Source of the DNA: a virus
Taxonomy: Duplodnaviria > Heunggongvirae > Uroviricota > Caudoviricetes
Virus record (IMG/VR): IMGVR_UViG_2657245588_000006
Reading direction: 5' to 3' (one strand)
DNA length: 37,059 nucleotides
Shown piece after piece: positions 17,195 through 18,283 of this stretch; positions within the stretch are counted from its first letter, which is position 1, and each line of letters opens with the position of its first letter. The position numbers and the translations under genes were made by a program. A model generated the notes under the pieces. It made no database searches. It worked only from the letters and a program-made list of their open reading frames with translations, and had not been told where the DNA came from.

Positions 17195-17217
17195 AAAAAG
17201 CCACACATATGCGTGGC
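17195..17217 (-). terminator. Intrinsic terminator candidate downstream of the protease gene
   Basis: 7-bp stem with one mismatch (gccacac atat gcgtggc) followed on the minus strand by TTTTT. Confidence 0.4.
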
Positions 17218-17250
17218 CATATCATGTATAAAATCTTATACAACGAATGT

Positions 17251-17991
17251 TTATTTCGTAGGGAAAGATGTGATCACATCAACGATGGGCTGGATTGAAA
17301 ATCCAATACCAATTCCGGAGTTAGCATTCTGCGACATCATGTCCGAAACAATCTGTAGCGATCTACCAAACATGTCCGCCATTTGCCCGAAATTAACACC
17401 CATGATCTCAACACTTCCATGCTGACTTGCTGAAGAAAGATATTGTCGCAGTTGGGCTATTTCTTGGCTGAAAGCATCAGCCTGATCGCCCATTATATAT
17501 CTACGCTGGGTGACGATACCTACTAACTCTCCCGAATCTCGATCAATAATAGGTCCTCCTGAGTTCCCCCCATTAACCATTCCATCAAGCGTAAATCGGC
17601 CATGCTCCATCGGTGCTGAAATAATTGCCTCACTTGTTAGTAACAGAGGTATCCCATGCGGGTATCCTGCAAAAATTACTTTTCTGCCCCTGGATGGAGC
17701 AAACCCAGCAGATGGTTGAAGGACTGTTCTCCCGGCAGGAAGCTGTGATTGCAACCGCATAATCGCAAAGTCGTTGTCACCATCAATGTGCAATATTTGA
17801 GCTTCGATATGCTCATTAACTTCAGTTTGAAGGATGACATGATTAATTTGACGCAGGTTCTGCAAGTCACAGCAGGTGGCGACAACATGCAAATTGGTTA
17901 CGACCAGATCTTCTCGCATGAAGCTGAACCCACTACCACGAGAATCACCTGCAATGACCTGAAACGTTGCGTTGGCTAAAGTTTGATGCAT
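17251..17991 (-). CDS. Trypsin-like (S1/chymotrypsin fold) serine protease, no signal peptide
   Basis: 246-aa ORF with GGAG RBS; candidate catalytic His in VTNLHVV, Asp in GDNDFAIM, Ser in GGNSGGP; no N-terminal hydrophobic signal. Confidence 0.7.
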   Translation of the reverse strand: MHQTLANATFQVIAGDSRGSGFSFMREDLVVTNLHVVATCCDLQNLRQINHVILQTEVNEHIEAQILHIDGDNDFAIMRLQSQLPAGRTVLQPSAGFAPSRGRKVIFAGYPHGIPLLLTSEAIISAPMEHGRFTLDGMVNGGNSGGPIIDRDSGELVGIVTQRRYIMGDQADAFSQEIAQLRQYLSSASQHGSVEIMGVNFGQMADMFGRSLQIVSDMMSQNANSGIGIGFSIQPIVDVITSFPTK

Positions 17992-18103
17992 CGATTTTCT
18001 CCGATACCGGTGAGTGAAAATTCATAATGGATTCATCCACCAGTTTAATTAATGAGATACATCAATTCACACGCAAAATATTCAACGCATCAATCAGCTC
18101 GTT

Positions 18104-18283
18104 TTATTTTTGAACTGAGCTCAATTTGAGCACCAATGCACATGAGTCATCGGTGGTTTCGCTTTTGATGACCACCAGCTCAAGAACCTCACCCTCTTGC
18201 GGGATTGCATTTCCCACGAACAGGTTTTTTACCTCGTTGATTGAGTTGGTAACCGAGATAAACCCACAGTCTTCTTTTTTCAT
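18104..18283 (-). CDS. Hypothetical small protein (59 aa), below the ORF-track cutoff
   Basis: My translation [59 protein letters not shown]; GAGG about 10 nt upstream of the ATG; sits between the Rha and protease genes. Confidence 0.3.

Follow-up and report, generated by a model that had tools for sequence, protein, structure and literature searches.

A trypsin-like protease and its 59-residue partner form a mobile prophage cassette with a possible role in phage exclusion

The IMG/VR virus record IMGVR_UViG_2657245588_000006 (Caudoviricetes; 37,059 nucleotides, the whole of which is referred to as the window) holds a lambda-like prophage with its late genes on the minus strand. Between its lysis genes and the cos region, this prophage carries a gene for a 246-residue trypsin-like serine protease, preceded by an open reading frame (ORF) of 59 codons. 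The two genes form a mobile accessory cassette, or 'moron', that recurs among lambdoid and P22-like prophages. The cassette is distinctive in that the protease is stand-alone, contains a hairpin insert, occupies a fixed slot in the late operon and has its small partner at 112 nt; no description of this combination was found in the literature. Among the roles considered, phage exclusion or abortive infection is the most likely one, a tentative assignment given slightly less than an even chance. This role is favoured because distant homologues of the protease lie in defence neighbourhoods and because phage phi80 provides a precedent.

Sequence, fold and distribution of the protease

The initial annotation of the locus, made from the nucleotide letters and their ORFs, had proposed an S1-fold protease with a His/Asp/Ser triad and without a signal peptide. 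Similarity searches and structure prediction agreed with this proposal. The protein matched Pfam Trypsin_2 with 73.6 bits (3.7e-20; gathering cut-off 27.6) and Pfam Trypsin with 32.3 bits. The catalytic residues are located in the motifs TNLHVV (His35), DNDFAIM (Asp74) and GGNSGGP (Ser144). In an alignment of 37 homologues with 40-85% identity to the protease, Asp74, Ser144 and the entire GGNSGGP motif were invariant and His35 was kept in 36 sequences. The exception, P0108 from Salinisphaera (L015:6001-6735), carries Arg where the others have the catalytic His; it lies amid transposase genes and may have been inactivated. Triad and oxyanion motif were retained from Enterobacteriaceae to Bacteroides, Pirellulales, Lysinibacillus and a haloarchaeal plasmid. 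This conservation is the signature expected of an active enzyme, and the protein is a predicted protease. The extreme N-terminus (MHQxLA[ND]ATF) and the C-terminal NANSGIGIGF, which forms the final barrel strand at residues 222-231, were near-invariant among the homologues. By per-position entropy, the catalytic barrel and the N-terminus were highly conserved, and variation was concentrated in the hairpin insert, in the first barrel at residues 41-70 and in the C-terminal tail. No signal peptide or membrane segment was detected in the protein, the maximum Kyte-Doolittle mean over 19 residues being 1.24, and the protease is predicted to be soluble and cytoplasmic.

An AlphaFold2 model based on the homologue alignment showed both beta-barrels of the chymotrypsin fold, with a mean predicted local distance difference test score (pLDDT) of 85.9 and a predicted template modelling score (pTM) of 0.79. 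The best solved structures in a Foldseek search were DegS-deltaPDZ, HTRA1, MucD and DegQ (E ~4e-12, 18-25% identity), with TM-scores to DegS-type structures of 0.6-0.77 (up to 0.77 on the target). The BFVD viral structures yielded generic trypsin folds only, at no more than 24% identity. Alignment and model both revealed a helix-turn-helix hairpin of about 55 residues (residues ~168-222). It follows the strand that ends in GIVTQRR and precedes the final GIGIGF strand, at the position occupied by the regulatory loop L2 in HtrA proteases. The protease shares with HtrA, DegS and DegP (MEROPS S1C) the chymotrypsin double barrel, the order and spacing of His, Asp and Ser, the GNSGG motif and the terminal 'GIGF' strand. 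It differs from them by an identity of only ~18%, the lack of a PDZ domain, the lack of a signal peptide or membrane anchor and the hairpin replacing L2. The absence of a PDZ domain was evident from the Pfam search, which gave no match, and from the C-terminus, which ends 15 residues past the last barrel strand. NCBIfam scores were 48.6 bits for degP_htrA_DO (cut-off 416), 25.7 bits for DegS (cut-off 423) and 59.5 bits for MarP (cut-off 250). As these values are far below all HtrA, DegS and MarP cut-offs, the protease represents a separate family and not an HtrA orthologue.

HMMER was run exhaustively against 1.84 billion cluster representatives and recovered 59 clusters at E<=1e-30, nearly all of which were stand-alone proteins of 235-260 residues (235-262 residues for the members) that matched from end to end. 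Members originated from Enterobacteriaceae, Salinisphaera, Deferribacteraceae, Arcobacteraceae, Acidithiobacillus, Pirellulales, Bacteroides, Lysinibacillus, Anaerolineae and others. Plasmids contributed a single match, which was haloarchaeal and had an uninformative context. The rare and patchy occurrence indicates that the family is horizontally mobile. The names of clusters holding related representatives were uninformative; the family is absent from PADLOC v2.0.0, and its annotation elsewhere is 'S1 family peptidase' only. The E. coli screen of Vassallo lists no trypsin-like system.

The two-gene cassette and its mobility

A partner ORF of 59 codons had been suspected upstream of the protease gene. 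It was confirmed at a distance of exactly 112 nt. All six compared copies comprise exactly 59 codons, and the pairwise ratio of nonsynonymous to synonymous substitution rates (dN/dS) was 0.09-0.24, so the ORF is a real gene under purifying selection. The encoded protein is acidic, and its AlphaFold2 model (pLDDT 78.7) consists of a short helix followed by a beta-hairpin. Profile searches of Pfam, PADLOC, PHROG and the PDB found no relative of it, and a fold search with the model returned nothing below E 0.6. One UniRef name, together with inspection by eye, had raised the idea of a relative of the S1 (OB-fold) ribosomal protein, but this was rejected with an hhalign probability of 1.4% and E>0.4 in the PDB profile search.

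The protease was present in 28 of 5426 complete E. coli genomes, each time as a single chromosomal copy, and all 28 had the 59-codon gene immediately upstream. The same gene preceded the protease in 25 of the 33 viral contigs of IMG/VR with a family member. A word-indexed search with the ORF detected close relatives only (at least 75% identity). Copies with 63% and 47% identity came to light on direct inspection, beside proteases of 53% and 66% identity, and homologues of the small protein with 47-100% identity precede proteases of 52-100% identity. The ORF was missing beside prophage proteases of 42-52% identity and at all non-enterobacterial loci. Intact proteases without it were found at L014, L038, L041, L053, L062 and all distant loci; in the Buttiauxella prophage L014, the gene is decayed and the spacer is still conserved. 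The association that the initial annotation had suggested examining across genomes is therefore strong, but it is not universal. Purifying selection and the restriction to prophage-borne proteases fit a role of the small gene that is tied to the phage life cycle. In E. coli PSS-11 (NZ_AP027694.1, ~1400214-1402333), the protease match is split and lies ~1.5 kb from the 59-codon ORF, which suggests an interruption of this protease copy by an insertion.

The spacer between the two genes is conserved in sequence and measures 112-113 nt in 23 of the 25 viral contigs with both genes. It includes an inverted repeat and a near-palindrome (Table 1) as well as the further conserved block GAATTGATGT. No Rfam family matched the spacer. 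A structured RNA was considered, since RNAalifold predicted an 8-bp hairpin with one compensatory change from seven sequences; with 27 spacer sequences, no robust consensus fold remained. The GGAG ribosome-binding site of the protease gene (18002-17999, 7 nt 5' of the ATG) and the hairpin with T-run behind the gene were found as first annotated. The C. freundii cassette has a different hairpin plus T-run at the same place. Beside the cassette terminator of the window, a stretch of ~100-130 nt (17100-17230) recurs with 90-99% identity in >100 records of lambdoid and P22-like phages, including HK544, Sf6, mEp460 and Emek, and in ~2500 E. coli genomes; this stretch probably serves as a conserved junction for module exchange.

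The placement between lysis genes and cos, stated in the initial annotation, is borne out by the holin, lysozyme and Rz genes upstream and by Nu1 and gpA downstream. In essentially every prophage, the cassette follows the lysis or spanin genes, and at least three lysis types and at least five terminase types flank it. The prophage L001 is lambda-like with Nu1. L002 and L003 are P22-like with two different terminases, and a Rha gene is present in L002 and missing in L003. Citrobacter prophages have an entirely different lysis cassette (holin_8, holin_3_7, GH19) and package with Nu1/gpA or DUF1441/gpA. The prophages of Leclercia, Cronobacter, Enterobacter and Buttiauxella possess HK97-like HNH/Terminase_4 or other terminases. 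Among the 33 IMG/VR contigs, 29 have lysis genes on the same strand within ~1.5 kb upstream, and 23 of these 29 also show a recognised terminase downstream. The presumed accessory hotspot was likewise confirmed, and genes for a Rha protein, a DUF1398 protein and a YlcI protein also lie in the region.

The cassette region is poorer in G+C (43-47%) than the structural genes (53-58%). Upstream of the 59-codon ORF, tblastn detected a non-coding remnant of an o-spanin (Rz1-like) gene, corresponding to the C-terminal 35 residues. A C. freundii ORF of 65 residues matched it with 66% identity (E 1.8e-10), with a stop codon upstream. The remnant belongs to a lysis cassette of the GH19 type, whereas the phage in the window has lambda-type S, R and Rz genes. 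Homology to L004 stops at window position 18404. The remnant reads as the upstream edge of the imported cassette, a recombination scar, and indicates import by recombination from a phage in which the 59-codon ORF began 44 nt past the spanin stop codon. Low G+C content and the foreign spanin remnant together mark the cassette as imported cargo. Mosaicism was also apparent within the cassette. L002 and the window share identical sequence in the distal two-thirds of the protease gene but differ in the 59-codon ORF and in the first third of the protease gene, and the reverse holds for the C. freundii copy. Patchy presence in varied prophage backbones, atypical composition and a terminator-like site after the cassette are features of morons.

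Proposed role and alternative explanations

The genomic neighbourhoods of distant homologues give the best hint at function and suggest a role in defence. In L027 (116-6477), a full-length homologue separates hsdM from hsdS in a type I restriction-modification (R-M) operon, and another one directly follows hsdR and a fused hsdM-S gene (L021, 936-6717). Other homologues stand directly after a TIR_2 protein (L019, 4959-6735), two genes after a TIR_2 protein (L023, 3970-6729) and adjacent to a KAP-family NTPase (L020). At L015 (6001-7753), the homologue lies upstream of an HNH_5 nuclease and between transposases. The L028 homologue interrupts a phage tail module on the opposite strand, and those of L016 and L025 lie on integrase-bearing islands. 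The protease with its TIR_2, R-M or HNH_5 neighbour may constitute distinct two-gene systems around the same protease. This defence-gene pattern is hard to square with a role in lysis, anti-defence or morphogenesis. A virion or morphogenesis protease was rejected on further grounds. The head-maturation protease is encoded by a separate S49 gene in the head module, and the cassette also occurs in prophages with P22-type heads. Neither of the two findings that would have refuted the initial annotation, loss of the catalytic residues in homologues or a known virion function, was obtained.

In the proposed mechanism, the protease would be kept latent by the variable 55-residue hairpin that replaces L2, possibly with the help of the 59-residue partner. 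The protease would be turned on by a signal from a competing phage during infection, and the activated enzyme would cut phage proteins or essential host proteins so that the competitor infection fails. Found in one enterobacterial sub-clade, the 59-residue protein is a phage-specific accessory and would most probably act as a cognate modulator or inhibitor; made from late transcripts, it would shield the lytic cycle of the carrier phage. A more far-reaching proposal is an undescribed family of single-protein anti-phage proteases, in which the hairpin senses infection, the 59-residue protein confers self-immunity and the 112-nt spacer serves as a control region. We regard this extended version as possible but rather doubtful. 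If true, temperate phages would carry this self-contained HtrA-like sensor-effector in the late operon, and the lysogen would be guarded while the carrier phage evades its own weapon.

Proteases are emerging as switches of bacterial immunity. To our knowledge, those recognised so far are either domains fused to sensors or partners of pro-nucleases or gasdermins. A lone cytoplasmic HtrA-like protease would represent a minimal sensor-effector and may expose a new proteolytic target in phage infection or host physiology. The pairing with the 59-residue protein and the length-invariant spacer would represent a defence with cognate self-immunity inside a phage late operon. As a small and well-delimited group, the protease family is an easily testable candidate.

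Lit of the cryptic prophage e14 is a Zn-metalloprotease of abortive infection that cleaves EF-Tu when triggered by the Gol peptide of T4. As a prophage-borne cytoplasmic protease able to abort a competitor infection, it provides a functional analogy only. Lit is unrelated in fold and catalytic type, has a different locus and lacks a small partner. The trypsin-like modules of Avs1, Lamassu LmuA, Hachiman HamMAB and retron type XI have in common with the cassette the Trypsin_2 domain, the cytoplasmic location, the occurrence in defence loci and an upstream partner. In the 'gated nuclease' pairs of trypsin and metallo-beta-lactamase (MBL) proteins described by Tuck et al. (Avs1, Lamassu, Hachiman and DRT), the protease forms a fusion with a sensor or enzyme (STAND, DUF1837 or reverse transcriptase), and the upstream gene encodes an MBL pro-nuclease (PMC12799240). 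Here, the protease is stand-alone, and the upstream gene has no MBL fold according to Pfam and PADLOC searches without a match. Retron type XI is a fusion of reverse transcriptase and protease (PMC7736814); the 246-residue protein contains no reverse transcriptase and matches model positions 339-503 of 506, which is the protease part only. The candidate defence system PDC-M35A includes a stand-alone trypsin-like component of ~216 residues, but its match to the protease is weak (E 1.2e-5, residues 19-161 only) and leaves the hairpin and the C-terminal region outside.

The precedent in phi80 is the orf62-66 region. The defence gene taiEcA and the late-expressed counter-defence gene atiEcA are adjacent there as orf63 and orf64 (PMC11364771). 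From the lambda-like gene numbering of phi80, this region would correspond to the interval from lysis genes to cos. Neighbouring defence and counter-defence genes in a lambdoid phage, the latter expressed with the late operon, would resemble the arrangement proposed for the cassette. The sequences are unrelated, Tai is no protease, and the Tai/Ati operon is non-contiguous, whereas both cassette genes lie on the late strand.

Several results weigh against phage exclusion as the role of the cassette. Membership in a catalogued defence system was rejected. The PADLOC matches of the protease (RT-Protease_XI as the best with 4e-15, Avs1b, PDC-M35A and LmuA) reflect generic Trypsin_2 similarity, because unrelated multi-trypsin/PDZ/RCC1 proteins match the same models far better. 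The model search advised in the initial annotation thus succeeded for Trypsin_2 and gave generic trypsin-domain matches only for the defence systems. No homologue of the protease was found at the DNA or protein level in 50,697 deposited phage genomes, so that no laboratory phage is at hand, and the literature search, RefSeq accession numbers included, found no paper describing the family. R-M, TIR or KAP neighbours occur at 5 of 16 distant loci, which is a raw count from a small sample without a statistical background; the contexts of L017, L018 and L022 were uninformative, as was that of P0114 between nadD and bioD. About one quarter of the prophage copies lack the 59-codon ORF, and hence this ORF is not essential for keeping the protease harmless. 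On the coding strand, the 1.4 kb upstream contained no consensus sigma-70 promoter with at least 9 of 12 matching positions, the best relaxed matches reaching 8 of 12; a weak or non-canonical promoter may still serve the cassette. In the native arrangement, the 59-codon ORF begins only 44 nt past the stop codon of the spanin gene. This close spacing and the lack of an evident promoter imply that expression may be Q-dependent and late and not take place in the lysogen. The defence role, considered plausible in the initial annotation, gained independent support from the R-M, TIR and KAP contexts of the homologues and stays a candidate role.

The expression signals could also be read as a late function of the phage itself, with the protease made from the Q-dependent late transcript only and the 59-residue protein acting as adaptor or timer. 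The targets of the protease would be host proteins, for instance proteolytic or stress regulators, or immune sensors and effectors that respond to late structural proteins; alternatively, it would tune the end of the lytic cycle. Such a function would agree with the missing consensus promoter, the shared late-operon orientation of both genes directly behind the spanin genes in essentially every prophage, and the presence of the 59-codon ORF in phage copies only. In addition, a terminator-like site after Rz (19335-19318) would cut the cassette off from transcription in a lysogen, except where Q-modified polymerase passes it. We nevertheless consider a late function rather unlikely, though a serious rival, because full-length homologues occur in type I R-M operons, beside TIR and KAP genes and on chromosomal islands without a phage. 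Furthermore, the slot is a known cargo hotspot, and the position alone is therefore weak evidence.

Ordinary cargo outside the conflict of phage and host, for example a cytoplasmic protease for quality control or regulation that is useful to the lysogen, is less probable still. HtrA-like proteases are typically enzymes of protein quality control, and some homologues such as P0114 reside among housekeeping genes. The family is, however, rare, patchy over phyla and consistently located on mobile or defence-type DNA, and the protease has neither the PDZ domains nor the envelope targeting of the quality-control HtrAs. The lowest probability, just below that of ordinary cargo, is assigned to an addiction pair resembling toxin-antitoxin modules, in which the protease would be the toxin and the 59-residue protein a labile antitoxin, stabilising the prophage with defence as a by-product. 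A small gene upstream of a larger enzyme in all 28 E. coli genomes and the purifying selection on the small gene are in line with such a pair, and IetS of IetAS is a precedent for a serine-protease toxin, as cited in PMC13069673. Intact proteases without the small gene, at the five loci named above and at all non-enterobacterial loci, argue against an antitoxin, as do the fixed 112-nt spacer between non-overlapping genes and the lack of a recognisable DNA-binding fold in the 59-residue protein.

Gene order and further accessory genes in the window

Table 1. Coordinates of the cassette, its sequence elements and surrounding genes in the window.
Feature	Position	Strand	Remarks
S49 head-maturation protease, gpC-like	10265-11719	-	adjoins the portal and major capsid protein E genes
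gpA	13366-15291	-	past the cos region, downstream of the cassette
Nu1	15266-15811	-	past the cos region, downstream of the cassette
YlcI/DUF3950 gene	16200-16433	+	accessory region, between cos and cassette
DUF1398 gene	16475-16900	+	accessory region, between cos and cassette
Intrinsic-terminator-like hairpin GGCCACGCATATGTGTGGCT (17218-17199), then TTTTTATT	17191-17218	-	33 nt past the protease stop codon
Protease, 246 residues	17251-17991	-	from the ORF list
Intercistronic spacer, 112 nt	17992-18103	-	length and sequence conserved in alignments
10-bp near-palindrome ATGAATCCAT	18036-18027	-	~25 nt before the ribosome-binding site; ATGAATTCAT in most relatives
Inverted repeat AATTGATG-N5-CATTAATT	18067-18047	-	in the spacer
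59-residue ORF	18104-18283	-	from the ORF list
o-Spanin (Rz1-like) remnant	18330-18428	-	C-terminal 35 residues, non-coding; tblastn
Rha-family regulator with ORF11CD3 domain	18622-19164	-	between Rz and cassette
Rz	19378-19815	-	upstream of the cassette
Lysozyme, 158 residues	19812-20288	-	glycoside hydrolase family 24 per annotation of an identical RefSeq prophage
S holin	20292-20618	-	upstream of the cassette
Q antiterminator	22273-22650	-	

The Rha gene was present in the cassette-bearing prophages L001 and L002 and missing in L003, which identifies it as independent cargo. On the other side of the cassette, the plus-strand stretch with the YlcI/DUF3950 and DUF1398 genes (16200-16900) has a very low G+C content of 34-40%. 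These two genes resemble ylcI and ybcV of the cryptic prophage DLP12.

A second accessory protease is encoded in the window at 21073-22068 on the plus strand. This SDH-type, ClpP-like serine proteinase of 331 residues matched PF01972 with 2e-14, and a PADLOC search with it gave no match. Its gene is located on low-G+C DNA between the Q antiterminator and the holin gene, on the strand opposite to them. Just past the integrase gene (33157-34341), a DUF2971 protein of 320 residues is encoded at 34479-35441 on the minus strand. It matched the PADLOC candidate PDC-S31 with 4e-22, suggesting a possible defence gene at the end of the prophage.

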